In this document: positions 4,896-61,519 of the stretch, piece by piece
Layout: each line of letters starts with the position of its first letter
Position numbering within the stretch: position 1 is the first letter of the stretch
From: a virus
Lineage: Duplodnaviria; Caudoviricetes
Direction: 5' to 3' (one strand)
IMG/VR virus record: IMGVR_UViG_3300050029_000197
Span: 1,531 to 65,530 of that record
Length of the DNA stretch: 64,000 nt
Program-made: the position numbers and the translations under genes
Notes under the pieces: model-generated
Told to the model about the DNA's origin: nothing
What the model saw: the letters and a program-made list of their open reading frames with translations, nothing else
The model's database searches: none

Positions 4896-4899
4896 CTCG

Positions 4900-4971
4900 T
4901 CCGGGAACCTCGGATCGAACGAGGACTACGACACCCCAAGCGTCGCGTGCTGCCAGCTACACCATTCCCGG
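4900..4971 (-). tRNA. tRNA-Pro(UGG), CCA not encoded
   Basis: Full cloverleaf: CCGGGAA/TTCCCGG acceptor, GTGT/GCAC D stem, CGACG-CTTGGGG-TGTCG anticodon arm, CCTCG-TTCGATC-CGAGG T arm; Pro identity elements C1:G72, A73 and G37. Confidence 0.93.
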
Positions 4972-34634: not shown

Positions 34635-36167
34635 TCAGGCTGGGGGAGTGGCGTCGTCGTAGAGCGTGAACCCTTCGAGCGACAGGCCCTGGATCTCCTT
34701 GCGGAGCACCTTCTCCCAACCGAAGTCGTTCCACACGACGCCCATCCACACCGTCCCGGCCGGCACCTCGACTGATTTGCGGACACCGTCGACGGTCGCG
34801 AGCTCGCATGTGACCGGGTACGGCCAGGTGACGAGGTCGACCCATTCGCCGGCGTCGGTGCCGGGGAAGTGCTGGAGGTTGACGGTCCGATCCCCGCAAC
34901 GGACGTAGTCCCACTGCGCCTCTTGGAGCGAGTCCTCGGTGATCCATTCCTTGTGCGTGTCGAGCCGGCCGGGCACGTACATGGGTGCGAACGTGTATCG
35001 CTTCGCCGCGTCCGATTTGCCGACCGCCATCTGCACATACGACGGGCCAAGGTCCTGGTCGTCCATTGGTTCGGCCCACCCGCCGATGAGTGGGAAGTGT
35101 GCGACGACCCCGCCGACCGCGACACAGAACGAGTCGACGATCCACTCGGCCGACTCGGGCAACGGCAACGCTTGCAGCGCGGTCGGGTCGGTCGCGGTCG
35201 CGAGCGTCACGTGCGGGACGAACCCGTGCGTGAAGTCGTCGACGGGCAACCCTTGCGCGTTGAGCTGCTCGATCAGATCGGCACGCAGGTCGGACAGGTC
35301 GATCGAGTCGATGAGCGCGACCGCCGTGTACCAGGGGCCGTCACTGTCCGCATCACCGTCGTCTTCACCTTGGGCGAGGGGCGCGTCGTTGTCGTCATCG
35401 TCGTCGTCGGTGTCGGGGATGAAGATGCCGACACCGGACACCTCCGCACCGAACGGTGAGATCGAACATGCTGCGCGCATCGCCGACGCGACAAGCGTCA
35501 ACGCTTGCGACACCCGGCCCGCGGGGATCCGCACGTACGCGAGGGTGACGTGCATGTCCTCCGCGGCCTGGCAGAGCACACCATCGCTGTCGGGAAGTTC
35601 GAGCGCCATCGCGATGTCGGATGGGAGGCCGAACCCGATCATGCACGGCACGACCTCGTCGTCAGGAATGGAACCGACTGCGTCCATGAACTGGGAGCGC
35701 GCATCCGCCGGGGACAGGTCCGCCTTCTGCACGCCGACGAGCTTCTCCGCGACGTCGGCGTACAGGCGGGTCGCCTTCGCGATGTCGTACGCGACGAGCA
35801 CCCCATGCGACACCGCGCGCGGTTCGGCCTTCGCGAGCGGCGCCGGCAACCGCCGGTCCGGGTACAGGGCCCGGTACGCCTTCGCGATCCTGGGCGACGC
35901 CTCCGCGCGCGCGACGTCGTCCATGCGGGCCAGTGCACCCATCGCCGCGTGGAGCCGACCCTGAGAAATGACGCCGTCGGCGGTCTTCCACAGCGGATGC
36001 CGCCACGTGGACCGGTCGGCCCGATCGCCGATGAGGGCGAACGCGTCGGCGGGCAGGTCCGCGGCCTTGGCCGTCTGCGACGGGATCTTCGCCTTCGGCT
36101 TCTTCTTGCCCGTACCGCCCGAGAGGAGCTCGTCGACGTGACCTTCGTTCGCGGTGGGGTCGGGCAT
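34635..36167 (-). CDS. XkdF-like capsid maturation protease fused to a 2H phosphoesterase (2'-5' RNA ligase-like) domain
   Basis: Two HxT motifs (MHVTLAY, PHVTLAT); C-terminal 'KRYTFAPMYVP..LDTHKEW...GTVWMGV...WEKV..EIQGLSLEG'. Confidence 0.8.
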   Translation of the reverse strand: MPDPTANEGHVDELLSGGTGKKKPKAKIPSQTAKAADLPADAFALIGDRADRSTWRHPLWKTADGVISQGRLHAAMGALARMDDVARAEASPRIAKAYRALYPDRRLPAPLAKAEPRAVSHGVLVAYDIAKATRLYADVAEKLVGVQKADLSPADARSQFMDAVGSIPDDEVVPCMIGFGLPSDIAMALELPDSDGVLCQAAEDMHVTLAYVRIPAGRVSQALTLVASAMRAACSISPFGAEVSGVGIFIPDTDDDDDDNDAPLAQGEDDGDADSDGPWYTAVALIDSIDLSDLRADLIEQLNAQGLPVDDFTHGFVPHVTLATATDPTALQALPLPESAEWIVDSFCVAVGGVVAHFPLIGGWAEPMDDQDLGPSYVQMAVGKSDAAKRYTFAPMYVPGRLDTHKEWITEDSLQEAQWDYVRCGDRTVNLQHFPGTDAGEWVDLVTWPYPVTCELATVDGVRKSVEVPAGTVWMGVVWNDFGWEKVLRKEIQGLSLEGFTLYDDATPPA

Positions 36168-36258
36168 GAGGTGGACTGTACGCCGCCACGGTCGTTTCGG
36201 CTGGGTTGGGTATAGGGAGACTGTTTTCAGTGTCTCACCGGACTGCGATGCTGAGGTC

Positions 36259-36711
36259 GTGAGCACCGACGGACCCGACCTTCCAGTCATTGAGATATGC
36301 GTCGTCTATCGAGCCTTCGCCGCGGACCGTGAGCTCCTCTACGTGGGCGTCACATCACAGTTCATGCAACGTATGCACAAGCATCGCGCGCGCAGTCCTT
36401 GGTGGCGGCTGGCGAGCAGCGTTACCGCCGAAGTGTTTATGACCCGGGCGGAGGGAGTCGCGGCGGAGGCACGAGCTATCGCGGACGAACGTCCTCGGTT
36501 CAACCTGGAAGCCGCACAGCGGCGAAGCGCAGCGGGTCTGATCGCCGGCCGCAAACGAAATATCCTGCTGCGTACGCATTGTCGGAGGGGTCACTCATAC
36601 GACGAGGCGAACACGATGATACGGAAGAGCAAGGGAAGGACCTATCGTGTGTGCAGAAGTTGTGCGCGTGAACTCGGCCGGCTGAGATACGCCCGGCTCA
36701 CTCTTCGGTAG
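36259..36711 (+). CDS. GIY-YIG endonuclease with C-terminal Zn-binding domain (homing-endonuclease-like)
   Basis: 'VVYRAF...LLYVGVT...RM..H...W...E..AI..E.P.FN' plus 'THCRRGHSYDEANT...CRSC'; opposite strand inside the head operon. Confidence 0.85.
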   Translation: MSTDGPDLPVIEICVVYRAFAADRELLYVGVTSQFMQRMHKHRARSPWWRLASSVTAEVFMTRAEGVAAEARAIADERPRFNLEAAQRRSAAGLIAGRKRNILLRTHCRRGHSYDEANTMIRKSKGRTYRVCRSCARELGRLRYARLTLR

Positions 36712-40022: not shown

Positions 40023-40042
40023 AAACTACACGCGTGTGGTCT
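40023..40042 (-). promoter_or_regulatory. class L promoter motif
   Basis: AGACCACACGCGTGTAGTTT, 6 nt before the portal GTG. Confidence 0.7.
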
Positions 40043-48292: not shown

Positions 48293-48705
48293 TCGAGCGG
48301 CTCGCGCCCCGGGGGATCCACCACCTCGGCGGTTCCCGACTGCTCCTCGCCGTCTGCGCCTTGCTCGCCCACGTCCGCATTGTCGTCGGGATCGATCAGA
48401 CCGACCTCGGGCGCGAGCTCGTCGTCCGTCGCCAAGGCGCCGAACTCGGTCGACTCTTCACGCTGCACGACGAGGATCCGGATCCAGGGTGCGTGCTCGT
48501 CGGTGCGGGCTGGATGCCATTCGACGGTGATCTCGACCGGGTCGGGAACCATGCCGGGCGACAAGAGCGCCGCGACCGCCTCCTTCACCGCGTTGACGCG
48601 GGCGTCGATGTCTTCGTCGCCGACGAACAGTTCGAGGAGCTGGCCGTCGACCGAGGCTTCGAGCTCGACCGCAACACCGGGACCGGCTGAGATTGTGCGG
48701 ATCAC
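48289..48705 (-). CDS. hypothetical acidic protein
   Basis: 138 aa coupled ORF. Confidence 0.55.
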   Translation of the reverse strand: MIRTISAGPGVAVELEASVDGQLLELFVGDEDIDARVNAVKEAVAALLSPGMVPDPVEITVEWHPARTDEHAPWIRILVVQREESTEFGALATDDELAPEVGLIDPDDNADVGEQGADGEEQSGTAEVVDPPGREPLE

Positions 48706-49031
48706 GGGAGGTGCACCACGGCGACGGTCACGCTGGTGACGGCCGAGTATGCGATCGCGGCGTGTCCGGCACCGTCGGCGTACCGGCCTGAGTCGAACGG
48801 GCCGGCTTCCTCTTCGGCGCCGGCAGCGACGGTTATCACGATGTCGTGATGGAACCCTTGCGAGCAGGGCACGACCGACGTGACGGTCGCGGTGTGCGGG
48901 GCGGAGTCGCCGTTCTTGATCCGCAGGTGGCAGCCGTTGCCGGGAGCGAACGTGTCTCCCCCGCTGGCGGCGGCGGCGAACGTGACCGCGGTGCCTGCTG
49001 CGGTGACTTCTTGGGTGCTCAGGAGGGCCAT
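48702..49031 (-). CDS. hypothetical virion protein
   Basis: 'FAAAASGGDTF...LRIKNG...AGPFD...IAYSAVTSVTVAV' resembles small actinophage structural proteins; behind a class L motif. Confidence 0.6.
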   Translation of the reverse strand: MALLSTQEVTAAGTAVTFAAAASGGDTFAPGNGCHLRIKNGDSAPHTATVTSVVPCSQGFHHDIVITVAAGAEEEAGPFDSGRYADGAGHAAIAYSAVTSVTVAVVHLP

Positions 49032-49040
49032 GGGCGCATC

Positions 49041-49060
49041 AAACCACACGCATGTCGTTT
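49041..49060 (-). promoter_or_regulatory. class L promoter motif
   Basis: AAACGACATGCGTGTGGTTTGAT, 6 nt before ATG 49031. Confidence 0.75.
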
Positions 49061-49083
49061 GCGGGTGGCATAGGCAGATCGGC

Positions 49084-50097
49084 TCAGTGCCGCCAGGCTC
49101 GGATGTAGTCGACCAGTTCCTCAGCGTGCGTCGTACTCGACAACACGGTCGGCGCCCGCGACGGCCCGAGCACCACCTGATAGCTCACGATGTTCCAGGG
49201 GGCTGACGGATGACCGGCGACCGAGCACACCTTCACACCGTCCACGTACCAGGTAGTACCGGTCGGCTCGATGTCGGAGCCATAGACGTGCAGGCCCGCG
49301 GTCGGGTCGAACGGCATCGTGTAGTGGCAGCCGCCACCCGACCCTGAGTGGGAGGTGAGATACAACTGGCTGTGGTTGTCGCCGTAGAACTCGAACGTGT
49401 CCGTCTCCTGCGACGCCCCACCTTGCGCCTGCCACGTCCACAAGGCGGGCTGGACGCCTGTCAGCGGTGAGAACTGGGCGCGCGTCTCGATGTAGCCGTA
49501 TGTGAACGCTTGCTTCGACCCGAGCTGTGCCGAAGTCCAGGCCATGCCGTTCGGCGCGGTCTCACGTCGCGACTGGAACGTCGCGACCCCGTTCGCGAAA
49601 CTCATGTTCTGGCCGTCGGTCTTGTAGTCGAGCTCACCGTTCCCCGAGTTGGACCGGCCACCGTCGCAGCATTCCCAGCTACCCCACGTGTTCCACTTCG
49701 TGCGGTCGAGGGTCGTGCCGTTGAACTCGTCGCCGAACGTCTGCGTCCAGGCACCGGGAACGCCGAGGGGTGACACTCCGCCGGACACAACCGCGGTCGT
49801 GGTGGTCGGCGCGACGGTCGTGGTGGTTGCCTGCGTCGTCGTCGACGCGCTGGCTGTGGTGGTCGTCGCCAGGGCCGTTGTGCTCGTCGTCGTAGAGGCG
49901 AACGACTGTGCGCGGGCGAGATCGGCGTCCGCGGCCTGCGATTCCGTTGCTGCGTTCTGCGAATGCACGCGCGCGCTCGCGAGGCACGACGTCACGTCCG
50001 GGCACGTCGCGGTCGCCGCACCCGACGAGGTCGCGACCGCGAGGCCGACCGTGACAATGACGGCAGTCGCGAGCGCGACGAACGAACGCCGCTTCAT
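49084..50097 (-). CDS. secreted glycoside hydrolase family 16 protein
   Basis: RR-containing signal peptide, Thr-rich linker, 'W...FGDEFNG.TLD..KW', 'YGYIETR', catalytic 'ETDTFE'. Confidence 0.88.
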   Translation of the reverse strand: MKRRSFVALATAVIVTVGLAVATSSGAATATCPDVTSCLASARVHSQNAATESQAADADLARAQSFASTTTSTTALATTTTASASTTTQATTTTVAPTTTTAVVSGGVSPLGVPGAWTQTFGDEFNGTTLDRTKWNTWGSWECCDGGRSNSGNGELDYKTDGQNMSFANGVATFQSRRETAPNGMAWTSAQLGSKQAFTYGYIETRAQFSPLTGVQPALWTWQAQGGASQETDTFEFYGDNHSQLYLTSHSGSGGGCHYTMPFDPTAGLHVYGSDIEPTGTTWYVDGVKVCSVAGHPSAPWNIVSYQVVLGPSRAPTVLSSTTHAEELVDYIRAWRH

Positions 50098-50140
50098 CAG
50101 GGTGGGGGCACGATGACCGACTCTGGGCATGCCGACCACG

Positions 50141-50160
50141 AAACCACACGCGTGTCGTTT
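50141..50160 (-). promoter_or_regulatory. class L promoter motif, back-to-back with a TATGCT -10 (50169-50174, +) for the tRNA
   Basis: AAACGACACGCGTGTGGTTT. Confidence 0.7.
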
Positions 50161-50182
50161 GCAGTCGGTATGCTCCCCCGCC

Positions 50183-50257
50183 AGCAGCGTGGAGCAGTCT
50201 GGTCAGCTCGTCGGGCTCATATCCCGAAGGTCCCCGGTCCGAATCCGGGCGCTGCCA
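50183..50257 (+). tRNA. tRNA-Met(CAU), initiator type, CCA not encoded
   Basis: AGCAGCG/CGCTGCC acceptor with 1:72 mismatch, GAGC/GCTC D stem, TCGGG-CTCATAT-CCCGA with three G:C pairs, CCCGG-TCCGAAT-CCGGG T arm. Confidence 0.88.
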
Positions 50258-50258
50258 C

Positions 50259-50894
50259 TCAGATCGACCCCCACGTCGGCGCCTCCTCCCCCTTCGGGAT
50301 CGTCTCCGCGGACATCCCGCCAAGCGCCATCCGTTCCCGCAAGAACTTCATCGCGCCGGACGACGCGTCGACCTGGTCATCATGCAGGCCATCCGGGAAC
50401 AGCTCGTGCTCGTCGAGATAGTCCTGATTCCATGCGGCTTCGACGAGGTCGACGTTGCCGGCCTGCGCGGCACGGCTGAACGGCTTCGCCCGCTCGGCCT
50501 TGTTCCCATCCGGGCTTTTGCCGTCGAAGTCGAGCCCGAGGAACACACCGCGCCGCATCCCGTCGACGTCACGTTTGCCGGACGCGCCGCCTTCCTGTTC
50601 CACGCGGATCGGGACCTGCTTGCGGGTCATCTCGTCGTCGAGCTCATGACGCTCGAACATCAGCCGGTCTGTCGTCGCCGGCGTTTCCCGAAACCGTGTC
50701 ACGTTGCAGACGATCCACCGGCCCTTCACCGTGCCCGGCATCTGACCGCGCGTCACCGCGAGCAACACGCCCGCCGTGAAGTCCGGATCGTGACCGGGCT
50801 TGAGTGGCTTCGTCGCCGCGAGGTCCCAGAACCGGACGCACTCGAGATCGGCGAGGATCGGCTCGACATCCTTACGCCACGAAATGAGCGCCAT
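50259..50894 (-). CDS. terminase large subunit, C-terminal RNase H-like nuclease domain as a stand-alone gene
   Basis: 'VRFWDLAAT...DPDFTAGVL...VEQEGGASGK...GNKAERA.PF...WN..YLDE...FPDG.HDDQVDASSGA'. Confidence 0.9.
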   Translation of the reverse strand: MALISWRKDVEPILADLECVRFWDLAATKPLKPGHDPDFTAGVLLAVTRGQMPGTVKGRWIVCNVTRFRETPATTDRLMFERHELDDEMTRKQVPIRVEQEGGASGKRDVDGMRRGVFLGLDFDGKSPDGNKAERAKPFSRAAQAGNVDLVEAAWNQDYLDEHELFPDGLHDDQVDASSGAMKFLRERMALGGMSAETIPKGEEAPTWGSI

Positions 50895-50926
50895 CTACAG
50901 GTTCACGGCGAGCACTCGGCGCGCAG

Positions 50927-51394
50927 TCATGTGTCCTCGGGATGAGCTGCCAACACCGAACAAGAACGCTGGCACGAACGGCAGGTGACGCTCGCCGGAC
51001 TGGTCGTGCTCGTCACGTCCTGCGACGACCATCGCTTGCCAACGCCGCACGCATACTCACCTATCCTCCCAATCCGGAGGTGCACGCGACCGCCTCGGAG
51101 CGCGCTCACGTTGCCTTTTCGGATCTCGCGAGTGTCTTCCTTGACGAGCGAGCGCCAACCGTCGCCACGTTGCTGCGCTATCTCAAGCTCTGAGCGAAGA
51201 CGTTCCACCTCAGACATCAACGCGACGAACGTGGGCGACACCGCCTCCTCGACATAGCAACACGTCGCGTCCGCCCGGGTGTCTTTCCGTGCCTTGACGA
51301 TCGCATCGTGGATCGTCTGGTGAAGTGTGCGGTCGAGTGTTGGCGGGCTTACTGGCTCACTCACCGCGCCGTTTTCGATTTTCGGCTCAGCCAT
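50927..51394 (-). CDS. hypothetical protein with C-terminal Zn-finger-like motif
   Basis: 'VH...ACG...VTCRSC'. Confidence 0.55.
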   Translation of the reverse strand: MAEPKIENGAVSEPVSPPTLDRTLHQTIHDAIVKARKDTRADATCCYVEEAVSPTFVALMSEVERLRSELEIAQQRGDGWRSLVKEDTREIRKGNVSALRGGRVHLRIGRIGEYACGVGKRWSSQDVTSTTSPASVTCRSCQRSCSVLAAHPEDT

Positions 51395-51423
51395 TCAGTC
51401 CCCCCCAATAGACGCACGGGCGC

Positions 51424-51669
51424 TCACACTTCGATCGGCAGGCCGGACGTGTTGCGATGGCACGGCGCGTAGTCCGGCCGCCCACACGAGCAGAGCGTCG
51501 CGTTCGGCATCCGCGGGATGAACGGATGTTTCGGTTCGCCGCGCAGAGCGGTAAGCGCGTCGTCGAGCTCGCCGAGCAGTTCGCCATCGTCGTCTTTCAG
51601 CGTCTCACCGCGCGCGACCGCCTCGCGGAGGCGCGAGTGGAACGGCTCGAGCGGGTCGTCAGCTCTCAC
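51424..51669 (-). CDS. hypothetical protein
   Basis: GTG coupled to the upstream stop; 'HPF...CSCGR...H'. Confidence 0.45.
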   Translation of the reverse strand: MRADDPLEPFHSRLREAVARGETLKDDDGELLGELDDALTALRGEPKHPFIPRMPNATLCSCGRPDYAPCHRNTSGLPIEV

Positions 51670-51863
51670 GACCGGTGGGCCGCGGCGATCGCCCGGCGCG
51701 ACTGACGCACCCTCTTCGGAACGTGACCGACATGGAACGCGCCGCAGAAGCCGCATTCGTACACGCCCATCCGGTCGAAGCAGCGTCGGCGGGCGGCCTC
51801 GCGTGTCGCGTACGCGATCTTCGATTCGCATGCTTTCCAACGTTGCGCACGCTTCGAGCTCAT
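51666..51863 (-). CDS. small C3H Zn-finger phage protein
   Basis: 'CESKIAYATREAA...VYECGFCGAFHVGH'. Confidence 0.65.
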   Translation of the reverse strand: MSSKRAQRWKACESKIAYATREAARRRCFDRMGVYECGFCGAFHVGHVPKRVRQSRRAIAAAHRS

Positions 51864-52081
51864 GGCGCCTCCAGGATGCATTCGACGCGATGGTGGCCGG
51901 TCTCGTTGAGGTGTCGGACGCACGCGGCCTGGGCGGCCAGCGTCGTCGGGCCACGCGCGCACCGGAACCCGAGCCCGCGCGCGCGTGGCCCGACGACGCT
52001 GGCCGCCTTCGCTTTGGGGGCCTGACCTACCGCGGCGAGGACCTGCGCCCGATACTTCGCCGGGAGATCCTCGAGCCGCAT
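51860..52081 (-). CDS. hypothetical protein
   Basis: 73 aa; ATG 7 nt after TGGCACAG-N8-TACCGT (class M variant, 52089-52110). Confidence 0.5.
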   Translation of the reverse strand: MRLEDLPAKYRAQVLAAVGQAPKAKAASVVGPRARGLGFRCARGPTTLAAQAACVRHLNETGHHRVECILEAP

Positions 52082-52113
52082 GCTCGTGACGGTACAGGAT
52101 GCCTGTGCCAGGA

Positions 52114-52464
52114 CTACGCGGCCTCGAGCTCGAGTGCGCGCTCGAGGCGGCGGAGGAACTCGGCGTCGCGCCGATCGGCCGCCTTGACGGCGTCGGCCGC
52201 CCAGCCGAGGTCGCTCTCGCGCGGCCGGCGGATGCGCACCTCGTCGATCGTCGGCGGCATGAGCCGCCCGGCCGTACCGACAGGGTCGATGTGCTCGTGG
52301 TCTCGATTGCAGCCGGCGCAGGTCCGCTGGAGCGGCGAGAGGATCGCGAGGAACCGCTCGTAAACCTCGGCTTCGGTGTCGCCGGGAACGAGCGCGACGC
52401 GGGTGCCGTAGAACACGAGCCAGCTCTGGCGCTCCTCGTCGTCGCTCAGACCGTTCCGCTTCAT
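52114..52464 (-). CDS. hypothetical protein
   Basis: 116 aa; ATG 6 nt after TACACT. Confidence 0.55.
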   Translation of the reverse strand: MKRNGLSDDEERQSWLVFYGTRVALVPGDTEAEVYERFLAILSPLQRTCAGCNRDHEHIDPVGTAGRLMPPTIDEVRIRRPRESDLGWAADAVKAADRRDAEFLRRLERALELEAA

Positions 52465-52503
52465 GGGTTCAGTGTACCTGAACGGTGCTCCCGGGCGAAG
52501 CGT

Positions 52504-52818
52504 TCAGAGCGTCCCGGCAGGCGCGTCGATCACGGGCCGCGCTGCGATCTCCTCCGGCGTTTCCGCCATCCGCATCAGAGCCGAGACGCCAACGATCAAC
52601 AGCGGGATCGTCGCCGTGCACGCGATCAGCAGCCACATAAGGGCATGCGACGTGACGGAGCCGTTGAGCTGCTGGATCTGGACCGCGGACACGTCGAACG
52701 ACTTGCGAATCTGATCGTCCGCGTTCATTTTCTGTGTCACGGTCGTGGCGGCTGCGGCGATCCAGGCGCCGAGCGCCACAAGCGCGCTGAGTTGCAAGGC
52801 TGGGGCAGGTCGACTCAT
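52504..52818 (-). CDS. two-TM membrane protein
   Basis: Two hydrophobic segments. Confidence 0.55.
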   Translation of the reverse strand: MSRPAPALQLSALVALGAWIAAAATTVTQKMNADDQIRKSFDVSAVQIQQLNGSVTSHALMWLLIACTATIPLLIVGVSALMRMAETPEEIAARPVIDAPAGTL

Positions 52819-52902
52819 AGGGCCAGATCATGCCGTGCGGCCGGACGGTGGGCAACTGGCGGTTGGCCGACGTCCAGCGATCAGGAACTGGTGGACGTCG
52901 CG

Positions 52903-53670
52903 TCACTGCCGCGGGAGCAGCTCGGCGGCGATCGCCGTGAGACCCAGGCTGTGCTTGTGCAGCGCCTCGGCCGTCGAGGCGAGATGCTTCGCCGCCCAGG
53001 TCGGGTCCGACTGCCAGGCCCTCACCAGTCCGACGAGCGTGCCGATCCGACGCGCACCTGACAGGCGGGTGAACTCGGTGACGCTGACACCGCTCGCCTC
53101 CTCGAACGCCACCAGATCAGCGCGGAGATCAGCGACGGTCTGAGCCAGCGCGACGTCGCTGGTCGCTCCTGCGCCGTCGCGTTTGCCGCGTTCGTAGCCG
53201 TGCTGCTCCCCCGCCTCTCGCGCACGGACCAGAGCGTTCGCACCGGCGCCGGACGCGCCGCGCATGATTCCGACAGTCGTCGCCCATTCGAGCGGCGCGG
53301 CGTCGTGCTTCGCCGCCTTCACCACGACCGCGACCTTGCCCTCGTTGACCGCGAGGAGACCCCATCCGGTCGGGAGCGTCTCGCGCACCCTGTCGGCGAT
53401 CTTCACCGGCACAGCGACATGGAACCGGTCCGCGTGGTTCCACCAGAAATCGGCCTTCTCGGGATTGTTGACCTCGCGCATCCAGTCGGACACCGACACC
53501 TTGATCTCGATGGCGTCGAGCTCGTAGCCGCGGCTCTTCCACAGCGACACGACGAGGGTGTCGATCTTGCGGCCCATCCGCATCGCGTCCTCGGCGCACT
53601 CGTGTAGCACGAGGTACTCGGACGGCTTCCAGTGCCGCTCGAGCGCGTCGCGAATCTCCGCCGCGTTCAT
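52903..53670 (-). CDS. PD-(D/E)XK nuclease-like protein (MmcB-like)
   Basis: 'RKIDTLVVSLWKSRG..LDAIEIKVSVSDWMRE..NPEKA...LPTGWGLL'. Confidence 0.75.
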   Translation of the reverse strand: MNAAEIRDALERHWKPSEYLVLHECAEDAMRMGRKIDTLVVSLWKSRGYELDAIEIKVSVSDWMREVNNPEKADFWWNHADRFHVAVPVKIADRVRETLPTGWGLLAVNEGKVAVVVKAAKHDAAPLEWATTVGIMRGASGAGANALVRAREAGEQHGYERGKRDGAGATSDVALAQTVADLRADLVAFEEASGVSVTEFTRLSGARRIGTLVGLVRAWQSDPTWAAKHLASTAEALHKHSLGLTAIAAELLPRQ

Positions 53671-53897
53671 GCGAAGAGGCTCGCCTGGCCCATGGCGTCG
53701 ATGAGCCGGCACGCGTAGTACGTGACCGCCGGCCTGGCGTCGCGGAGGTCGGCGATCGACGCCGCGCGCCCGGCCCGCATGTGCATGTCGGCGCGGAGCA
53801 GCGCGTCGGCGTCCGCTTCGGTCACATGGCGCGCGCGGCAGACGCGCCGGGCCATCTCGTCACCGCTCATGTGCTCGACGCCGTACTCGACAACCAT
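53667..53897 (-). CDS. hypothetical protein
   Basis: 76 aa coupled ORF. Confidence 0.5.
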   Translation of the reverse strand: MVVEYGVEHMSGDEMARRVCRARHVTEADADALLRADMHMRAGRAASIADLRDARPAVTYYACRLIDAMGQASLFA

Positions 53898-53901
53898 CGA
53901 C

Positions 53902-54159
53902 TCAGTCGGCCGAGTCCATCGGACGGTTCGGCACCGCGGCGAGCGCGCTGGTGCCGTGCACGTCGAGCGGCTCGAAGCCGACCATGAAGTGGTCGCGCAG
54001 CGCGGGCGCTTCGGCGGGCGAGCACGCGATCTCCATCGACCCGGACCCGTCCTCCGCTTGGAGGGTCACGATCGTTGCCGGGACGAGCTGCTCCGACATC
54101 GCGGACTCGCGGGCGCCGGTAGCAAGGCTCGCGACGATCATCTTCCTGGGTTCCATCAT
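53902..54159 (-). CDS. hypothetical protein
   Basis: GAGGAG RBS, 85 aa. Confidence 0.55.
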   Translation of the reverse strand: MMEPRKMIVASLATGARESAMSEQLVPATIVTLQAEDGSGSMEIACSPAEAPALRDHFMVGFEPLDVHGTSALAAVPNRPMDSAD

Positions 54160-54166
54160 CTACTCC

Positions 54167-55876
54167 TCATCGGATCGCTTCCATCAGATCGTCACTCGCG
54201 CGCCAGCCGTCTATGAGGCCGAGAGTGCGGAGTTTCGACACGTCGTTTCGGATCGTGGACAGGGCCGGGTCGTGGCCGGTGACCGCGCACACGTCCTGCT
54301 TCGTCAGTTCCGCGGGGTAGGCGTCGACGAGGACGCGCAGCACCTTGCGCGGCCCCTCCCCCACCTCGCCGAGCCAGTAGTCGTACAGGGCCGGACCGTT
54401 CGGGAGTTGCTCGAGCTCGCGGTCGGCGGCGAACGCCACGCCCGTGTCGGTGAGTCGCCACGGCTCGCCTTGTTCCATGAGCCCGGCGGTGCGGAGGCGT
54501 GACGCGATGTTGCGGATCGTCGACTTGCGCGGGCTGTAGCCGGCTATCGCCGCGACCCACCCCTTCGGCGCGCCGCCCGGGTAGCGCGCGAGCACTGTGA
54601 GTACCCGCAGCTCCGGCTGGCCGAGCCCTTCGACCGCTACCACGCCGGCGACGGAAGACGCTCGAGCCGAGGGCGGCCGCGGCGGAGTCGCGCGCGGCGC
54701 GGCCGCCCCGGGGACCGTCGGCGTCACCTTTGAGAGCGCGTCCAGTTCGGCGACAAGCGCAGAGAGCTCGAACCGGTCGTGCTCCAGTTGCGCGATCGCA
54801 CGATCAACGAGCGCGAGCGCGACATCGCCGTTCTTGATCGCACGCGCGGGAACGGTCGGAACCTCGATCACGGTCGGCTCAGGCGCGACGTCGGACGTAT
54901 CGGCTTGCGCGGCGGTAAGCGCCTTCTCAAGCTCCCGGATGCGCGCCTGCAGTTTCTTCGGGTCCTCTCGCTCGGCCCGTTCGATCGTCTCCGCCATCGC
55001 CGCGGTCAGACGGCCAAGATCCACCTTCGCGAGCACGCGCGGATCGCGGCGCTTCTCCCCCGCCTTCGGTGTCGCGCCACTATCGAACGTCGTCACCTTG
55101 CGGAACCGGGCCCGGGTGAGGGTGTCAAGCCATGACGGCGACCACACCCACGCCTCACCAACCTGCAGCGACGCGAGGCTGTCGATCACCTCCCGCAACT
55201 GTGCGGTCGGCGCGTTGCCTTTCACCCAGTCGCTGATGACCTCCTTGTCCTGCGGGGCGGTCGTCTGCAACGCGACGAGCACCTCGATCTGCGTGAGGAC
55301 GTTCTTGTTCAGCGACGCGGAGCGTTGCGAGATCATCGTGCAGCCGATACCGCGCCCGCCGCCTCGTTTCACGAGCGTCTCGAACGCGCCGAGCTGACGG
55401 TGCGTCGAGTCGCCTTTGACTGTCTGCGGTGCGAACTCCTCCGCCTCGTCGATGACGACCATGACGACGTCGTGCTGGTGTGCCTTCGCCCGGTAGAGCT
55501 GCTCGGCAAAATCGGTCGTGAACCTGACCTGCGCGGCCTTCGACGGGAAGTCGGACAGGTCGAGGATCAGTGCGATCGGCTGCGACGCGACGAGATTCGC
55601 GATGACCTTGCCGGCGGTCTCCTCGAGTGGCAGATGGCCGCGTGGGCCGCCGAGCACGATGACCTGCTTGCCGGGCCCGTCACCTTTCTCGTTCGAGAGC
55701 AGCCCCCACCAGTCGCCCTTCGGGTCCAACACGACGACCGGGAGGCCGGCGTCGATCATCTCCTCGACGAGGACCTTCGCCGCGTTGGTCTTGCCCGCAC
55801 GTTTGCGGGCGAGGATCCCGATGGTCTGTGTAACCGCGTCCTCGGGGAACTCGAGCCCCGGGCCGAGCTTGAGCAT
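54167..55876 (-). CDS. HerA/FtsK-superfamily ATPase (DUF87-like) with C-terminal wHTH repeats
   Basis: Walker A variant 'ARKRAGKT', 'VLDPKGDWWG', Walker B 'VVIDEAEEFAPQ', 'ISQRSA.LNK.VLTQ'. Confidence 0.85.
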   Translation of the reverse strand: MLKLGPGLEFPEDAVTQTIGILARKRAGKTNAAKVLVEEMIDAGLPVVVLDPKGDWWGLLSNEKGDGPGKQVIVLGGPRGHLPLEETAGKVIANLVASQPIALILDLSDFPSKAAQVRFTTDFAEQLYRAKAHQHDVVMVVIDEAEEFAPQTVKGDSTHRQLGAFETLVKRGGGRGIGCTMISQRSASLNKNVLTQIEVLVALQTTAPQDKEVISDWVKGNAPTAQLREVIDSLASLQVGEAWVWSPSWLDTLTRARFRKVTTFDSGATPKAGEKRRDPRVLAKVDLGRLTAAMAETIERAEREDPKKLQARIRELEKALTAAQADTSDVAPEPTVIEVPTVPARAIKNGDVALALVDRAIAQLEHDRFELSALVAELDALSKVTPTVPGAAAPRATPPRPPSARASSVAGVVAVEGLGQPELRVLTVLARYPGGAPKGWVAAIAGYSPRKSTIRNIASRLRTAGLMEQGEPWRLTDTGVAFAADRELEQLPNGPALYDYWLGEVGEGPRKVLRVLVDAYPAELTKQDVCAVTGHDPALSTIRNDVSKLRTLGLIDGWRASDDLMEAIR

Positions 55877-56000
55877 CAGCCAACCAGCTCCAGCAGCGCG
55901 CGCGCGTCGCGCTGCGCCTGGTAGAAGCGGTCGAGCTCCGCGCCGAACAGTCGCGCCGGCGGACGCGCGGTCGCGAGCGCGCGGAGGAGCGGGTAGCCGT

Positions 56001-56189
56001 TCACTTGCCGGTCGCGGCGTCAGTGCCGGGCAGCGCCGGCAGCGTCGGCAGGTACACCTCGAGCGCCTTCTCGATCAGGAACGCGGGCGCGAGCATCCGG
56101 CTCTCTGCTTCGGCCTTGAGCTGCTCGGCGACCGGCGTCGCGATGGACGCGTGGATCGCCGTCTTTGTGTTCGATGCGGGCTGGACCAT
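56001..56189 (-). CDS. ribbon-helix-helix-like small protein
   Basis: GAGGAG RBS; 'AIHASIATPVAEQLKAEA...FLIEKALEVYL'. Confidence 0.6.
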   Translation of the reverse strand: MVQPASNTKTAIHASIATPVAEQLKAEAESRMLAPAFLIEKALEVYLPTLPALPGTDAATGK

Positions 56190-56191
56190 GG

Positions 56192-56470
56192 TCAGGGCTC
56201 CTCTACTACTTCGGGCAGGTACACCATTTCGCCGGTCGCGCGGTCACGGCCGTTGAGCCGGAACCAGCGGCCGCGATGCTCGATGCGGCGAAACGAGCGC
56301 GGCGCGTTGCGGAACGCGACGACGACCTCGCTGGTGCTTTCGATCAGCACCAGGTGGTCGCGTTGCAGCAACGGCTCCGCGTACATCAGGTGACGCCGAC
56401 TCGGCGCGGGCGCTGGGGCCGCTCTCACCTCGCGGCGTCGTGCCTTCGCTCGCTTGCTCGCGGTCGTCAC
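56192..56470 (-). CDS. hypothetical protein
   Basis: 92 aa coupled ORF. Confidence 0.5.
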   Translation of the reverse strand: MTTASKRAKARRREVRAAPAPAPSRRHLMYAEPLLQRDHLVLIESTSEVVVAFRNAPRSFRRIEHRGRWFRLNGRDRATGEMVYLPEVVEEP

Positions 56471-57501
56471 GACGAGCGCATCGGCATGAACGCGCCGTGC
56501 ATCTCCAGGTCGGGATCGTGGTTCGACACCTTGAACAGCACCGGCCGGTCCGGCCCGCAGAACGTCCAGTCGAGGATCGGATCCTCACCGGTCGGGAGAC
56601 GCAACGACCCGAGCCGCTTCATCACATGCGCGCCGAACGTGCCGCCGTCGATGTCGCCGACGTCGTGTTCGAGGATCCGCTCCCAGGTCGGGAACACGCC
56701 CTCGTCGTACAACGGCAACACCAGCTCGGAGTCCGCAACCTTCAGTGTCAGCTCGCCGGCGTTCGTGAGTGCGCTCGTACCCTTCTTCGACTTCTCGTCG
56801 CTCTCGCCTTCGTCGGCAGCCTCGACGGGCGCCGGCATGCGGAACCCGTAGAGGTCGAGCTGCTCGACGTTCATCAGCACCTCGCGGGCGCCGAGCTCGC
56901 GGTGGGGGCCGACGACGCCGTGCGCTTCGAGCTCGCCCATGATCCGCTGCGCCCGATGGAACGAGATCCGCAGCCGACGTTGCAGCATCGACACCGCACC
57001 CAGGTCGGTCGCGACGACCAACTGTGCGGCGGCGGCGATGAGCGGATCCTCGAGCTCCCCGACCGCCTCCGCGAGCTTCGCCCACTCCGAGATCGGGATC
57101 TCCGGGCCGTCGTTGATCGAGATGGTCATCTCCAACTCGTCGGCGTCGTCCGCGTCCGGATGCCCACACACGAGGTCACAGGGGATTTCCTTCACGCCCT
57201 GCAACAGGGCGCCCATGAGGCGGAGCGAGTCGCGATGCACGAGCGCATGCCACTCCCCCCGCCCGGTCTCATGATCAAGGCGCGCTTCGCGGCCGATGAC
57301 CAACTCCTGCACGAGGAGCAGGTAACTGTCGGTCGAGATGATCTGCAGCCGGTCCTCGTCCGCGATCATCTCCACGCAGCACAACACCGGTCGGAACTCG
57401 TCCGAGCTGGCGATCGTCGACGCGTTCGACAGCGCCGCGTTCAGCGCCTTCGGGTTCGTGATCGTCGACCACGGCGGCGAGACAACGTCAGTCGGCGGCA
57501 T
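56467..57501 (-). CDS. DNA Pol III beta-clamp-like protein with inserted FtsK gamma domain
   Basis: 'ASSDEFRPVLCCV...LQIISTDSYLL', 'GVFPTWERIL', C-terminal 'FMPMR' (DnaN-like); 'DPLIAAAAQLVV...AVSMLQRRLRISFHRAQRIMGELEAHGVVGP...REVL' (FtsK gamma). Confidence 0.8.
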   Translation of the reverse strand: MPPTDVVSPPWSTITNPKALNAALSNASTIASSDEFRPVLCCVEMIADEDRLQIISTDSYLLLVQELVIGREARLDHETGRGEWHALVHRDSLRLMGALLQGVKEIPCDLVCGHPDADDADELEMTISINDGPEIPISEWAKLAEAVGELEDPLIAAAAQLVVATDLGAVSMLQRRLRISFHRAQRIMGELEAHGVVGPHRELGAREVLMNVEQLDLYGFRMPAPVEAADEGESDEKSKKGTSALTNAGELTLKVADSELVLPLYDEGVFPTWERILEHDVGDIDGGTFGAHVMKRLGSLRLPTGEDPILDWTFCGPDRPVLFKVSNHDPDLEMHGAFMPMRSS

Positions 57502-57856
57502 GCTGGTTCACCACTTCCACTCGGTCGGCTCCGATCGTGAGCTGCAACGACGGCTGCGCGTCTCTGCTCACGATCACAACCTTGGGTTCGGTCGTCGTGA
57601 ACCAGGGGAAGGGATGGCCGTCGATCTCGATGCCGAACGCGCGGCCTTTGCGCGTCACCACGATCGTCCGCGCGAGGACGGGCTCCGAGACAAAGACGTG
57701 TCCATCGAGTCGACGCCAGACCTCGATCTCATCGACCACCTCCGCCACGAGTGCCGCGAGAGACCCGGGTTCGGGTTCGCCTGCGTTCTCGCGTGCGGTC
57801 GCCAGCCAGGTCTTGATCGGCGCGAGGTCGATCCCGTCGTTCTTCGGGGTGCTCAC
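57488..57856 (-). CDS. hypothetical protein
   Basis: GTG 7 nt after a class M -10 element. Confidence 0.55.
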   Translation of the reverse strand: MSTPKNDGIDLAPIKTWLATARENAGEPEPGSLAALVAEVVDEIEVWRRLDGHVFVSEPVLARTIVVTRKGRAFGIEIDGHPFPWFTTTEPKVVIVSRDAQPSLQLTIGADRVEVVNQHAAD

Positions 57857-57859
57857 GAG

Positions 57860-57885
57860 GTTCAGTATGCCTGCACCCTGAGACA
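57860..57885 (-). promoter_or_regulatory. class M promoter, identical to 29382-29407
   Basis: TGTCTCAG-N8-CATACT just after the TerL-ATPase stop. Confidence 0.75.
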
Positions 57886-57896
57886 ACATCGTCAGG

Positions 57897-58781
57897 TCAC
57901 GCGGCCTGCAAAAACCATGCTCTCTCGAACATGCGGCCGGCTTCGCTGATCTTCCAGTCGCCCGCGAGCATCCGTGCGAGGTCGATCGGGTCGAGACCTT
58001 GCTCGAGGCCGGCGACGTAGGTGTCGCGGTCGATGCCCGGGTTGTCGGACAAGAACGCGGGGATGAACACCCGATTGGGATTCTCGGTCAGCCGGTCGAG
58101 CCCAATCTGGAAGCGGGCCTTCACCCACGGCACGCCGGGCCCGATCGGGTTCGTCCCCGACCTGGTGCGCAACGGCACGTCGGCGAGCGTGAGCCCGCAG
58201 CTCGGGCATGCCTTGAGTCCCGCCCGGCCCTTCGCTGGGCGGCGGACGCGCGCGAACCCGATGTACTGGTACGGGCGGGCAGTCATCCAGCCGGTCAGCT
58301 CGTCGAACCCGACGTACTGGTAGGCGTGCGACGCGAACTTGAGCCGGTCGGCGTCGCGGTCGGCGTGTCCGAACTTGAGGATCGCGCCCGACGGGAACTC
58401 CCACACGTTCGACCCGAAAATCGAGTGCGCCGCATGCCAGATCGCGTCGGTGCCGGCGAGCCACTCCTCCGACCTGGGGATCAGACCCTCGGCGCCGGTG
58501 AGTTGGGGGGCCGTCTGGCGCATGAGCAGGGCGGCGTAACCGGGCACGCACACGTATTGCAGGGCCGCGTCGAGGAGATAATCCGACTTGCCCGATCCCG
58601 CGCTCCCGCCATAGAGCAGCTCGCGGACACGGTTCGCGTAGCCCGACAGCGCGGCCGACTGCTTCGCCGAGCGCGGGTAGTCGGGCCGGTATTTCGTGCC
58701 GCACGGGTCACGCGGTCTGAACTCGTCGAGCGTCGCGCGCGCCGCGCGCCGCGCCTCGATGGGTAGGACGAGCGCGGTCAT
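57897..58781 (-). CDS. terminase large subunit, N-terminal ATPase domain as a stand-alone gene
   Basis: 'SAKQ' Q motif, Walker A 'YGGSAGSGKS', Walker B 'YVGFDELT', 'GTNP.GPG..WVK.RF', 'FIPAFLSDNP', ends 'LAGDW...MFERAWFLQAA*'. Confidence 0.92.
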   Translation of the reverse strand: MTALVLPIEARRAARATLDEFRPRDPCGTKYRPDYPRSAKQSAALSGYANRVRELLYGGSAGSGKSDYLLDAALQYVCVPGYAALLMRQTAPQLTGAEGLIPRSEEWLAGTDAIWHAAHSIFGSNVWEFPSGAILKFGHADRDADRLKFASHAYQYVGFDELTGWMTARPYQYIGFARVRRPAKGRAGLKACPSCGLTLADVPLRTRSGTNPIGPGVPWVKARFQIGLDRLTENPNRVFIPAFLSDNPGIDRDTYVAGLEQGLDPIDLARMLAGDWKISEAGRMFERAWFLQAA

Positions 58782-59248
58782 GCCGGCTGCAGCGTGCCGA
58801 TCCGGTCGAGGAGCGCGAGCCGGGCGCCAGTCTCGTCCGGACAGCGCATCGCGAGTCGTCCGCCGGCGCCGTAGATCACGAGATCGCAGCTCCCGTCGTC
58901 GTGCGGGTCGAGCATGAACGCGTCGATGCGTTCGCCGTGGCCGGAAGTCGTGTCCAACGCACCGAAGCCTTCCCCGCATCGCGCGCGCCGTCAGGACCGA
59001 CGTCGTCGTCGTGGATGCCGAATCTGGTACAGGATGGCTGCACCGGACAAGGTTGTCAACGGGCAACACGCGTACGGCTGTGGCGCGACGCGCAACATCC
59101 CGAGCACCCGAGGCGGGAGGTAAAGCCTGCCAGGGCGACTCGGGATGTTGCTTCCGTGCGACGCGGCGAGGGACGCTACGCCGCCGGGCGCCAGGATCCT
59201 CGCGGACCGCAGCGCGACGACAACGCTACACGGCGGGTGTGCCCGAGA

Positions 59249-59392
59249 TCACCGAGGTGCGAGCTCGGCCGAGTGGCGGCCATCGGCGCACGGCATCGCG
59301 CCGGTCGCAACGTGCACGCGGGGCGCGCCGGGTCGGATTGTCGGCTGATCGCACCACGCACACCGCTCGTGCGTCTCGACGGTCGCGGTCAT
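59249..59392 (-). CDS. small Cys/His protein
   Basis: 'CAWC...H...C...H'; coupled to the upstream gene. Confidence 0.45.
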   Translation of the reverse strand: MTATVETHERCAWCDQPTIRPGAPRVHVATGAMPCADGRHSAELAPR

Positions 59393-59937
59393 GACGCCCT
59401 CCGGGCCATCTTCGCTGCAGCCGCGTTCAGGAACACGCTCGGGTCGGTGATCTCCCAGGCGTTCGCGTCGCGGTAGCCGGGGAGGTTCGAGATCGCGCGC
59501 TGCTCGAGCGCGCGGCAGAACGCGAACGCCTCGCTCTTGGGCCAGTCCGGCGTCTCGCACGCCTGGTACTCGAAGCACGAGATCGCCTTGAGGACGACAA
59601 CCGGGTCCGGGGTGCCCTGCAGCTCGCGGTAGATGTACGGCTCTTCGATCTCGGTCTCGTCGTAGCGGAAGTCGACCGAGCGCCGGTTCTCGGCCATGAG
59701 CATCGCGCCCACCTGGCCGGCCCTGTCTCGGGTGAGTTCCCGCATCGAGTCCCGGTAGACCTTGGACGCCGCCGGGCCCCACGGTTCGCCCGGCTCGAAG
59801 GCGCGGGCGTAGTCGGGGTGGTCCTCGATGTTGACGGTCCAGCGGATCGGGCCCTCGTGACGATGGGGCATCCCCCACACGACGCCCGCGGTGAGCAGCG
59901 CGTCGATGTGGACCTTGCCGACCTCGAATGCACTCAT
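59389..59937 (-). CDS. hypothetical protein
   Basis: GGAGG RBS; 'MSAF.V...HIDAL...ENRRSV..RY...LKAISCFEYQACE...W..SEA'; first gene after a class E promoter. Confidence 0.7.
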   Translation of the reverse strand: MSAFEVGKVHIDALLTAGVVWGMPHRHEGPIRWTVNIEDHPDYARAFEPGEPWGPAASKVYRDSMRELTRDRAGQVGAMLMAENRRSVDFRYDETEIEEPYIYRELQGTPDPVVVLKAISCFEYQACETPDWPKSEAFAFCRALEQRAISNLPGYRDANAWEITDPSVFLNAAAAKMARRAS

Positions 59938-59970
59938 AGCAACCTCCCTTGCGTATCCCCCGTCCCTCGG

Positions 59971-60011
59971 GGGTATAGGGAGACTATACCACAAGGCTGT
60001 CCGGTTGGCAA
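59971..60011 (-). promoter_or_regulatory. class E sigmaA-like promoter with palindromic operator
   Basis: TTGCCA-N17-TATAGT; GGTATAG-GGAGA-CTATACC. Confidence 0.8.
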
Positions 60012-60458
60012 TCAGGAAGACGGGACCACCTCCGGCTCCGAAGCGCGCACGCCACCGAAGCTGCAGTGCATCTCGCCTTTGTCGAGGATCCCGCCACACT
60101 GGTCGCACACCACTCCCGGCCGTCCGTCACCCGGGCCGCGTTCCTTGTCCCGCTCGAACGCGATCCACGACGCGTCACCGTTCAGCCGGTGGTCGGCCTG
60201 CTCGCCCGTCGCGAGCGCCGAGATCATCGTGCGGCGTTCCTGGAACGTCAGCGTCCGCGACCCGCACAACGAGCAGGCGGGCAGGCCGTCGACGACGATC
60301 ACCCGGCCGTGCATGGAACGGAAATGGCGGATGACGTCATCGACGGCCTCGAGGATCGTCGCTTCCGGGACCGCGGCCCGCCGGCGGCGGGCGAGCTCGG
60401 GCATCACCTGGAGCAGGCTCTCGCGCAGCTTGTCGACTTCGGTATCGGGAATGCTCAT
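60012..60458 (-). CDS. hypothetical protein with Zn-ribbon motifs
   Basis: CSLC...CDQC; GAGG RBS behind a class E variant (60478-60496). Confidence 0.6.
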   Translation of the reverse strand: MSIPDTEVDKLRESLLQVMPELARRRRAAVPEATILEAVDDVIRHFRSMHGRVIVVDGLPACSLCGSRTLTFQERRTMISALATGEQADHRLNGDASWIAFERDKERGPGDGRPGVVCDQCGGILDKGEMHCSFGGVRASEPEVVPSS

Positions 60459-60567
60459 CGGTTACCTCGTCCCTCGGGGTCTAGGCAGACTATACCGCGA
60501 GGGTGTGCCCGGAACGCGAGACGACCGCCCCGAAGGACGGCCGCCTCACTGAGAGCCCTCTTCTTCG

Positions 60568-61041
60568 TCAGACCGTGAGCTGTGCGCCCACCGCGGCGCC
60601 CGGGTTGACCGTCACCGCGACCGGGAGAACTGCCTGCCACGGTGTGCCGTCAACCTCGACGAGCGGGTTGCCCGACGCGTCCGCGAGGCGAACCGCGACG
60701 TTCGCGACGCCTTCACCGACGACGGTGATCGCACCCGAGGTCGGGTCGATCGTGAGTGCGGCTTCGTTGTCGGAGCTGAACGTGGCGACCGCGACGTCAG
60801 GCTTCGGGGCGTTGGTGTCGCCCTTGTCGTCGACGTACGCGAGGTTGGCTTGGGCGTTGACGGTATCGACCGTCAGGGTGGCTGTGCTCATGGGTGGTGC
60901 TTCTCCTACGGTCAGAACGGCCTTGGTGGCCGGCGGGCGGGCTTCTCCGAGCAGAACCGTCAACGGCTTGCCGTCGAAGTGGTGGTGCACGTGCACGTGG
61001 ATCTCGATCGCCGGGCGTTCGGGTCCATCGATGTCGGGCAC
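60568..61041 (-). CDS. Ig-like (Big_2-like) domain protein
   Basis: 'ATFSSDNEAALTIDPTSGAITVVGEGVANVAV'; start uncertain (GTG 61041 behind class M motif 61049-61070, or ATG 60891). Confidence 0.6.
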   Translation of the reverse strand: MPDIDGPERPAIEIHVHVHHHFDGKPLTVLLGEARPPATKAVLTVGEAPPMSTATLTVDTVNAQANLAYVDDKGDTNAPKPDVAVATFSSDNEAALTIDPTSGAITVVGEGVANVAVRLADASGNPLVEVDGTPWQAVLPVAVTVNPGAAVGAQLTV

Positions 61042-61086
61042 GTCTGCGACCATACGCTCGTGCTGAGACAGGATAAGTGAACCCGA

Positions 61087-61407
61087 TCAGACGACTTCGG
61101 CGCACGCTTCGGCCAGGGTGCGCCGAAGTCGCGAGCCGGCCATGTCGCCGAGCCGGTTCACTGCGATCACACCGTCGATCATGTCCGCGACAACATCAGC
61201 GAGGGGCCGGCCGTGCAGTTTCACCGCGACGACCGCTGTGCCGTTCGACTGGCGGCGGATCGTCCGGTTCACGCCCGGTTGGCGTGGTGGGCTACGGAAG
61301 GCGGGCACCTCGAGCTCCGCAGCGCGGATTGCCATGCCGATCCGGCGCGCGAGCTCTGCGAACTGCACCGACGGCACCTCGTTCCCGAGCGGCATCGCCG
61401 CGGTCAT
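61087..61407 (-). CDS. conserved-looking hypothetical protein
   Basis: 'VPAFRSPPR.PGVNRTIRR...VVAV...GRP...V.ADMIDGVIAVN'. Confidence 0.6.
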   Translation of the reverse strand: MTAAMPLGNEVPSVQFAELARRIGMAIRAAELEVPAFRSPPRQPGVNRTIRRQSNGTAVVAVKLHGRPLADVVADMIDGVIAVNRLGDMAGSRLRRTLAEACAEVV

Positions 61408-61519
61408 CGGAACGCCAGCAGGTACACGACACCTGCGCTCAGGACCCACATTGCGAGGCCGATCAGCGTGCCGATGATGCAGCCGCGCGCGGGGGCGAGC
61501 GGGTCGACGTCGTCGCCCA

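Follow-up and report, generated by a model that had tools for sequence, protein, structure and literature searches.

A large terminase encoded as two separate genes in a peat-soil phage and its relatives

Two terminase genes and the block between them

The window analysed here is a stretch of 64,000 nucleotides from a soil (peat) phage of the Caudoviricetes, bases 1531-65530 of the 65,530-bp linear IMG/VR virus record IMGVR_UViG_3300050029_000197 (CheckV completeness 78%). Its G+C content is about 68% and the minus strand carries nearly all genes. Among these are two that together encode the large terminase subunit (TerL): a gene of 294 aa for the ATPase half (57897..58781, minus strand; the protein collection holds an identical gene call, P0072) and a gene of 211 aa for the nuclease half (50259..50894, minus strand). 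They are separated by a block of 7,002 nt (50895..57896) in which about 14 tightly packed open reading frames (ORFs) are listed on the same strand, in line with the 13 or more genes that an initial annotation, made from the sequence alone, had placed there. The ATPase half matches Pfam Terminase_6N (E 1.6e-5) and covers positions 152-421 of the 642 positions of phrog_979 (E 4e-39). The nuclease half matches Terminase_6C (E 1.8e-9) as well as TIGR01630 (psiM2_ORF9), and covers positions 430-604 of phrog_979 (E 1.4e-36). Since the matches to phrog_979 are adjoining and complementary, the two genes represent the halves of one TerL family.

The ends of the two genes are clean. The ATPase ORF terminates in ...GDWKISEAGRMFERAWFLQAA-TGA, with the TGA four codons past the F-x-R-x-W-F motif, and the nuclease ORF starts with MALISWRKDVEPILADLECVRFWDLAAT, its ATG following directly on an in-frame TAG and lying about 20 codons before VRFWDLAAT. 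Both boundaries were thus described correctly in the initial annotation, which had put the end of the ATPase half just past the inter-domain linker motif and the start of the nuclease half some 20 residues ahead of the first catalytic aspartate. A single polypeptide cannot be read from the locus as it stands: the ATPase domain is closed by the TGA, the next 7,002 nt contain many stops, and the TAG precedes the nuclease ATG. In fused kin the linker from W-F to V/I-R-F/Y-W-D-L measures only 12-14 residues, and therefore no part of TerL is missing and the cut falls in the inter-domain linker. Beyond the TerL domains the ATPase half carries 4 extra residues and the nuclease half about 19 (4-20 overall). 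At its other end, the ATG of the ATPase half overlaps, as ATGA, the stop of an upstream 59-aa ORF without family match (58778..58957, minus strand).

The catalytic motifs are kept in both halves, as had been claimed, and they are invariant across the split relatives described below. In the ATPase half this holds for Walker A (GSGKS) and Walker B (GFDE), with G64, K65 and D160/E161 in alignment A3, and in the nuclease half for D24, D172, D173 and D176 in alignment A1. Moreover, codon bias is high in both genes, with a G+C content at third codon positions (GC3) of 0.89 for the ATPase half and 0.85 for the nuclease half. Four cysteines (C27, C78, C192 and C195 in the window), which include a CPxCG motif, are also invariant in 13 of 13 ATPase-only proteins of alignment A3, and some ATPase-only members have an extra Cys-rich insert before this motif. 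Judging from the residues, a zinc site in the ATPase domain is possible.

Most neighbouring ORFs of the block overlap or sit a few bases apart. The larger ones, all on the minus strand, are a 133-aa ORF next to the ATPase half (57488-57889, from the ORF list), a protein with an FtsK-gamma domain and weak, sub-threshold DnaN-like matches at its N-terminus (56467-57501), a 569-aa ATPase of the HerA superfamily with a weak, sub-threshold winged-helix match at its C-terminus (54167-55876) and an MmcB-like nuclease (52903-53712); the last three were assigned with Pfam, PHROGs, PADLOC and NCBIfam. The remaining ORFs are small. The 569-aa HerA/FtsK-superfamily ATPase also matches phrog_2666 ('terminase large subunit') with an E value of 1.7e-14.

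The arrangement is not an artefact of assembly. In X1, possibly the source sample, one Logan contig of 14,161 nt spans positions 49683-60500 with 0 differences, and contigs of two further samples bridge both junctions without difference (50649-51150 and 56358-58709 in X2; 50095-51480 and 56422-58273 in X3). Near-identical DNA occurs in at least four samples. No contig that joins the halves was found in four runs, in which contigs can miss rare forms, and the contig joints listed have sides of only 21-30 letters, apart from a 75-nt indel elsewhere. A family search of the whole 65.5-kb record returned the two matches and no further or full-length TerL. An origin of the halves in unrelated TerL lineages is ruled out as well, for they share a nearest viral locus, L003 (57% and 52% identity), and are surrounded by the same kin in the domain trees. 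The split is therefore genuine with respect to each of the three findings that could have undone it, namely misassembly, a full-length TerL elsewhere in the record, or halves of unrelated descent.

Distribution and inheritance of the split

A search with the ATPase half found 34 viral loci. Both domains are present in 31 of them and are fused in frame in 29 of the 31, so that this TerL family is normally encoded by one gene. The two exceptions, L003 and L034, are split at the same point as the window, with gaps of 3.5 kb and 1.35 kb, and each of their records has a single match to either domain. The genomic context of the split is readable for these three loci only, and all three records are incomplete (CheckV completeness 40% and 27% for L003 and L034).

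A comparison of split and fused relatives, as the initial annotation had advised, brought up many more split forms at the protein level. Among proteins of 161-515 aa there are 12 further ATPase-only clusters of 280-368 aa and 43-68% identity, all of which end 3-8 residues after F-x-R-x-W(F/L/I). Among proteins of 116-370 aa there are 14 further nuclease-only clusters of 189-221 aa, which start about 15-20 residues ahead of VRFWDLAAT. Eight nuclease-only proteins that fall outside the main clade and come from contigs of 0.9-5.4 kb (P0011, P0019, P0032, P0033, P0037, P0038, P0040 and P0045) were left uncounted as possible fragments. Closest to the window are the Logan-derived proteins P0002-P0005 and P0073-P0077. 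The more distant kin are fused. More specifically, the eight matches to the ATPase half at 55% identity or more are all ATPase-only, fused forms appear at 50-55% identity and below (P0085 has 55% over 81% of the query), and among proteins of 516-2000 aa the identity stays at or below 45%.

The trees are in line with this picture. In the nuclease tree the 14 nuclease-only clusters and the window fall in one clade with a support of 99% in the Shimodaira-Hasegawa-like approximate likelihood ratio test (SH-aLRT), and three fused forms (P0080, P0085 and P0089) lie inside it. The ATPase tree requires at least three state changes for its 13 split forms, and its well-supported branches are compatible with a single origin. 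The linker of the fused P0085, ...FERSWLEANRVAPRDVPWSDLEIVRAWDLAAT, resembles the ATPase tail joined to the nuclease head, and this protein could be either the ancestral state or a re-fusion.

Most loci with a nuclease match look fused: in 164 out of 192 the frame is open for 200 codons or more upstream. In 8 of the 192 it is interrupted within 60 codons; these are the window locus, two split contigs (each found twice) and three prophage loci, two of which look decayed. In the remaining 20 the contig ends too early or the first stop is further away. A scan of viral contigs with the nuclease alignment yielded as split contigs only L037 (the contig of L003) and L045 (that of L034), the rest being fused. 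In genome contigs the best match has 49% identity among the at least 600 matches listed, and the matches in metagenome contigs are all at or below 50% identity and begin at query residue 13-20. A contig of a Pirellulales metagenome-assembled genome holds a nuclease-domain match (L188, 10001-10441) with a stop 10 codons upstream; in the 10 kb upstream no ATPase match was found at E<=1e-5, and the match represents a further nuclease half on its own or else a remnant.

The recurrence of the clean split across clusters, together with the invariant catalytic residues and the high codon bias, points to purifying selection on two working genes. On these sequences, the split is a heritable trait of the lineage rather than an accident of one contig.

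The content of the block is mostly different among the window, L003 and L034, with one small protein common to the window and L003. In L003 the HerA-like gene survives as a remnant with an internal deletion (9519-9860), in which only residues 1-65 and 529-569 are left and which sits directly upstream of the ATPase half and not between the halves. Given this difference in content, the gap behaves like a site at which genes are readily gained and shuffled and not like a discrete mobile element. Variation on a smaller scale was seen within the window's own block. The sequences 51932-51965 and 51974-52007 form a 34-nt inverted repeat (94% complementary), and a contig of run X4 lacks exactly 75 nt at 51917-51991, so that the hairpin is a polymorphic insertion. 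It sits inside the ORF that is homologous to a small L003 protein, where it replaces the Cys-containing stretch of that protein.

Expression, assembly and rival readings

The initial annotation had given the intervening genes their own promoters, and a scan does not bear this out. A consensus search of 48500-61500 returned one sigma-70-like site against 0.7 expected, and this single site in 13 kb lies at 60011-59983, upstream of the ATPase half. It is part of a promoter-operator element (59955..60011, minus strand; TTGCCA-17-TATAGT with a TG) in which the palindrome GGTATAG-N5-CTATACC is embedded in the promoter-like site TTGCCA-17-TGGTATAGT. This palindrome occurs six times in the window against 0 expected (8177, 12718, 30441, 59972, 60478 and 63829), and the promoter-operator copies nearest the halves are those at 59972 (upstream) and 30441 (far downstream). 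These sites are candidates for repressor-controlled promoters. A second motif, a near-perfect 20-nt palindrome (AAACCACACGCGTGTGGTTT-like), is found at six sites (4984, 27826, 34585, 40022, 49041 and 50141), with 10 strand matches against 0.02 expected. Its first copy downstream of the nuclease half, AAACGACACGCGTGTGGTTT, is at 50141..50161 on the minus strand. Some of its sites are located at or just before the starts of (structural) genes, for example the start of the portal gene at 40025, and in L003 a similar sequence, as read from its translation, precedes a homologous gene. The motif is a candidate late-gene regulatory site or RNA hairpin.

Both halves are thus situated inside one densely packed block that is bounded by two repeated motifs, from which we infer co-transcription, and they appear to belong to one transcription block. 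This argues against a separate timing of the halves, which had also been proposed. With respect to translation, no Shine-Dalgarno sequence is evident at the nuclease start, which in each of the three split loci comes 0-9 nt past the stop of the ORF ahead of it. This suggests that the nuclease half is translationally coupled to that ORF.

Considering all this, the large terminase of the lineage is quite probably made of two subunits that assemble in trans, with a hot spot for gene insertion between their genes. TerL is divided at its flexible inter-domain linker into two genes, of which one would make a stand-alone translocating ATPase and the other a stand-alone nuclease of the RNase-H-like type. 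The two polypeptides would associate non-covalently on the packaging complex into a working terminase that, like a one-chain TerL, cleaves concatemers and drives the DNA into the procapsid. Once the domains were separate, their boundary would have become a permissive site for unrelated accessory genes, which the phages of the clade then would have gained or shuffled, up to the present gap lengths of 1.35 kb in L034, 3.5 kb in L003 and 7.0 kb in the window. The two-subunit motor of the initial annotation therefore stands as far as a heritable two-gene TerL, a conserved split point and intact catalytic residues are concerned, and not in its separate timing.

Modelling of the two halves as a multimer, which had been put forward as a check, weakly suggests that they may bind each other. 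Co-folded with our own alignments, the halves reached a score of 0.45, against 0.01 for the best control. Of 80 solved complexes 58 attain the mark applied, as do 2 of 110 mismatched pairs; with scores of 0.60 or less, however, only 7 of the solved complexes but both mismatched pairs attain it. Between runs at least 78% of the contacts coincide, and the partner has a pLDDT (predicted local distance difference test) of at least 78.

Several points weigh against an assembly in trans. The co-folding result may reflect a memory of solved full-length TerL structures and not binding. In the TerL proteins of T4 and P74-26 the nuclease is described as relying on the ATPase domain and on communication between the two domains (PMC3074133, PMC5389665). 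Considering that these nucleases depend on a tethered ATPase domain, a non-covalent version is not trivial and a stable or regulated association would be expected. A full-length TerL may be located in the missing fifth or so of the 78% complete genome, and outside the three contexts that were read the halves are paired only because their contigs are equally long. Finally, the three split loci have more in common than the split. In all three, both halves and the ORF just ahead of the nuclease half are in one reading frame, this ORF closes with an in-frame TAG that is 0-3 codons away from the nuclease start, and the ATPase half ends in TGA. The shared frame and the in-frame TAG, each with a chance of about 1 in 27, leave a small opening for read-through or a joining mechanism.

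A doubtful elaboration makes use of these very patterns. A detachable, separately dosed nuclease would dock only for the first and last cut on a phi29-like ring formed by the ATPase half alone, the gap would be a lineage-wide cargo slot that places DNA-handling or counter-defence genes in the terminase transcript, and the shared frame and the TAG could contribute to a translational coupling by which the subunit ratio is set. A related reading, in which the halves are largely independent, is unlikely. An ATPase-only ring would then translocate, and a free nuclease, perhaps at a different dose, would be recruited for the initiation and termination cuts. Indeed, phi29-type motors are described as using an ATPase without an active nuclease (PMC7672431), the co-folding support is weak, and the distance between the genes could permit different translation yields. 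However, the halves are part of one tightly packed block without any intervening promoter-like or terminator-like signal above chance, and the dependence of the P74-26 and T4 nucleases on their ATPase domain speaks against it as well (PMC5389665, PMC3074133).

Alternatively, the halves might be rejoined before or during expression to give a one-chain TerL, be it by DNA excision late in infection, by RNA splicing or trans-splicing, by protein trans-splicing or by recoding. TerL genes of other phages are interrupted by spliced group I introns, inteins or short bypassed inserts, and the common frame of the halves in the three loci would suit such a mechanism. Nevertheless, we consider it very unlikely. 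The absence of an intron or intein signature noted in the initial annotation was confirmed. Rfam at E<=1 returned no group I or group II intron in 49500-59500 of the window (only the tRNA and chance matches of miRNA or snoRNA type) and no intron in L003 or L034. Pfam revealed no intein or homing-endonuclease domain in the halves, the flanking ORFs or the blocks, and no recombinase, transposase or reverse transcriptase was found in the blocks with Pfam, PADLOC and NCBIfam. There is neither an N-intein on the ATPase half nor a C-intein on the nuclease half, each of which has no more than the few extra residues given above. The blocks, 1.35-7 kb long, are made up of ordinary protein-coding genes, and these vary from one relative to the next. 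An excisable insert of the skin-element type was rejected specifically, considering that the block has no recombinase inside and no direct repeats at its ends, and that none of the four runs yielded a joined contig, though rare forms can escape contigs. It is likewise very unlikely that TerL was broken by insertion and is dead, the element being a defective prophage or a satellite packaged by the terminase of a helper phage: the L003 record is classed as a provirus, the three records are incomplete and decayed TerL genes with stops or frame changes occur in scattered prophage loci (e.g. L140 and L144), but a clean split with proper stops and starts, catalytic residues that are invariant across clusters 43-68% identical, the high GC3 of both halves, the portal, major capsid, tape-measure-sized and endolysin genes of the window and the presence of near-identical DNA in several samples all speak against it.

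Known systems and neighbouring features

The initial annotation implied that a split TerL is unique, which has to be corrected. In Arthrobacter phages of cluster AY the TerL domains are annotated in two consecutive genes (PMC11920828); in BillyTP (GenBank PP978841) these are genes 2 and 3, at 600-1679 and 1663-2259, with a 17-nt overlap. The AY phages, which are cultured, plaque-forming actinobacteriophages, resemble the window in having separate ATPase and nuclease genes with the cut just before the first catalytic strand of the nuclease. In contrast to their consecutive genes, the halves in the clade of the window are 1.35-7 kb apart with other genes between them. No similarity between the halves of the window and those of BillyTP is detectable by BLASTP (E 0.07 for the ATPase half and 1.1 for the nuclease half), which indicates that the split of the window is independent and arose in another TerL family. 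The two-gene TerL as such is thus already known, and the window adds an independent, non-adjacent variant. The fused phrog_979/Terminase_6 proteins of Gordonia phage ChisanaKitsune (gp12) and Methanobacterium phage psiM2 (ORF9) belong to the same family as the window, with 39-42% identity to the ATPase half, and differ from it in being one polypeptide of about 490 aa.

TerL coding sequences in pieces have been encountered in other forms. Group I introns for which splicing was shown interrupt TerL in the Jug phages (PMC12880540), cyanophage Mic1 has an intein in TerL (PMC7156551) and Hau3 has short bypassed inserts (PMC10732093). The pieces of the Jug and Mic1 genes are rejoined by RNA or protein splicing, whereas neither introns nor inteins were found at the window locus, where the ATPase piece has a stop and the nuclease piece a start of its own. 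In herpesvirus UL15 the terminase coding sequence is likewise separated by other genes, being contained in two exons that are spliced to one mRNA for one protein. The window differs from UL15 in that there is no sign of splicing and that the intervening genes are on the same strand. A parallel in outcome is the nrdA gene of Aeromonas phage Aeh1, an essential phage enzyme that is split into two genes by a homing endonuclease gene in the manner of T4-like genes in pieces, and the products of which reassemble non-covalently (PMC3045599). In Aeh1 the gap holds the homing endonuclease gene, which supplied interaction domains, whereas in the window no homing-type gene was found among the up to about 14 unrelated genes. 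Two coding sequences with TerL domains are also on record for phiPDS1, where the authors suspected a code or assembly issue. A search of the literature outside subscription journals and supplements found no description of non-adjacent TerL halves without splicing.

The initial annotation had further suggested that a split TerL could evade defences of the Avs type. EcAvs2 is described as activated by the ATPase domain alone, and SeAvs3 as binding the folded nuclease too (PMC13601566). Evasion is pure speculation, and any escape would be partial at best.

Models of the packaging motor lean on a covalent coupling of ATPase and nuclease, in terms of inter-domain "communication" and a tethered, flexible nuclease (PMC3074133, PMC5389665). 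Here, a natural lineage appears to keep the two domains on separate chains and to tolerate kilobases of unrelated genes between them. It thereby offers a system to ask which domain binds the portal, TerS and DNA, which stoichiometry the nuclease requires and how cutting is held off during translocation. There are practical consequences as well. Annotation and virus-mining pipelines that rely on one TerL gene would score such genomes as terminase-less or as carrying a truncated terminase, and TerL-based phylogenies need the halves to be concatenated. More generally, the boundary between two domains can turn into an insertion hot spot.

On the minus strand the nuclease half is followed by a GH16 gene, an endolysin gene, a tail-fibre-like gene, the portal gene, the major capsid gene and a tape-measure-sized gene. 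A tRNA-Met gene (CAT) at 50183-50258 on the plus strand, opposite to all its neighbours, lies immediately next to the nuclease stop. Here the contig depth rises to 34-395 from about 3-14 in other places, owing to matches of short contigs from other organisms. The tRNA could be a captured host tRNA or the relic of an attachment site. The GH16 glycosyl hydrolase gene (49084-50139, minus strand) encodes a hydrophobic, signal-like N-terminus and is flanked by two copies of a 31-nt motif that are 84% identical (49041-49071 and 50141-50171). In L003 a homologue of the gene that comes after GH16 in the window (115 aa) follows directly on the nuclease half. In view of this order and of the flanking motif copies, the GH16 gene looks like an inserted moron. 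Among the window ORFs scanned no integrase was found. Elsewhere on the minus strand the window encodes a ParB-like protein (1337-2095), a fusion of phage DAM-like and GNAT-like domains (3405-4925) and a 556-aa protein that matches an RNA-ligase PHROG (34635-36305).

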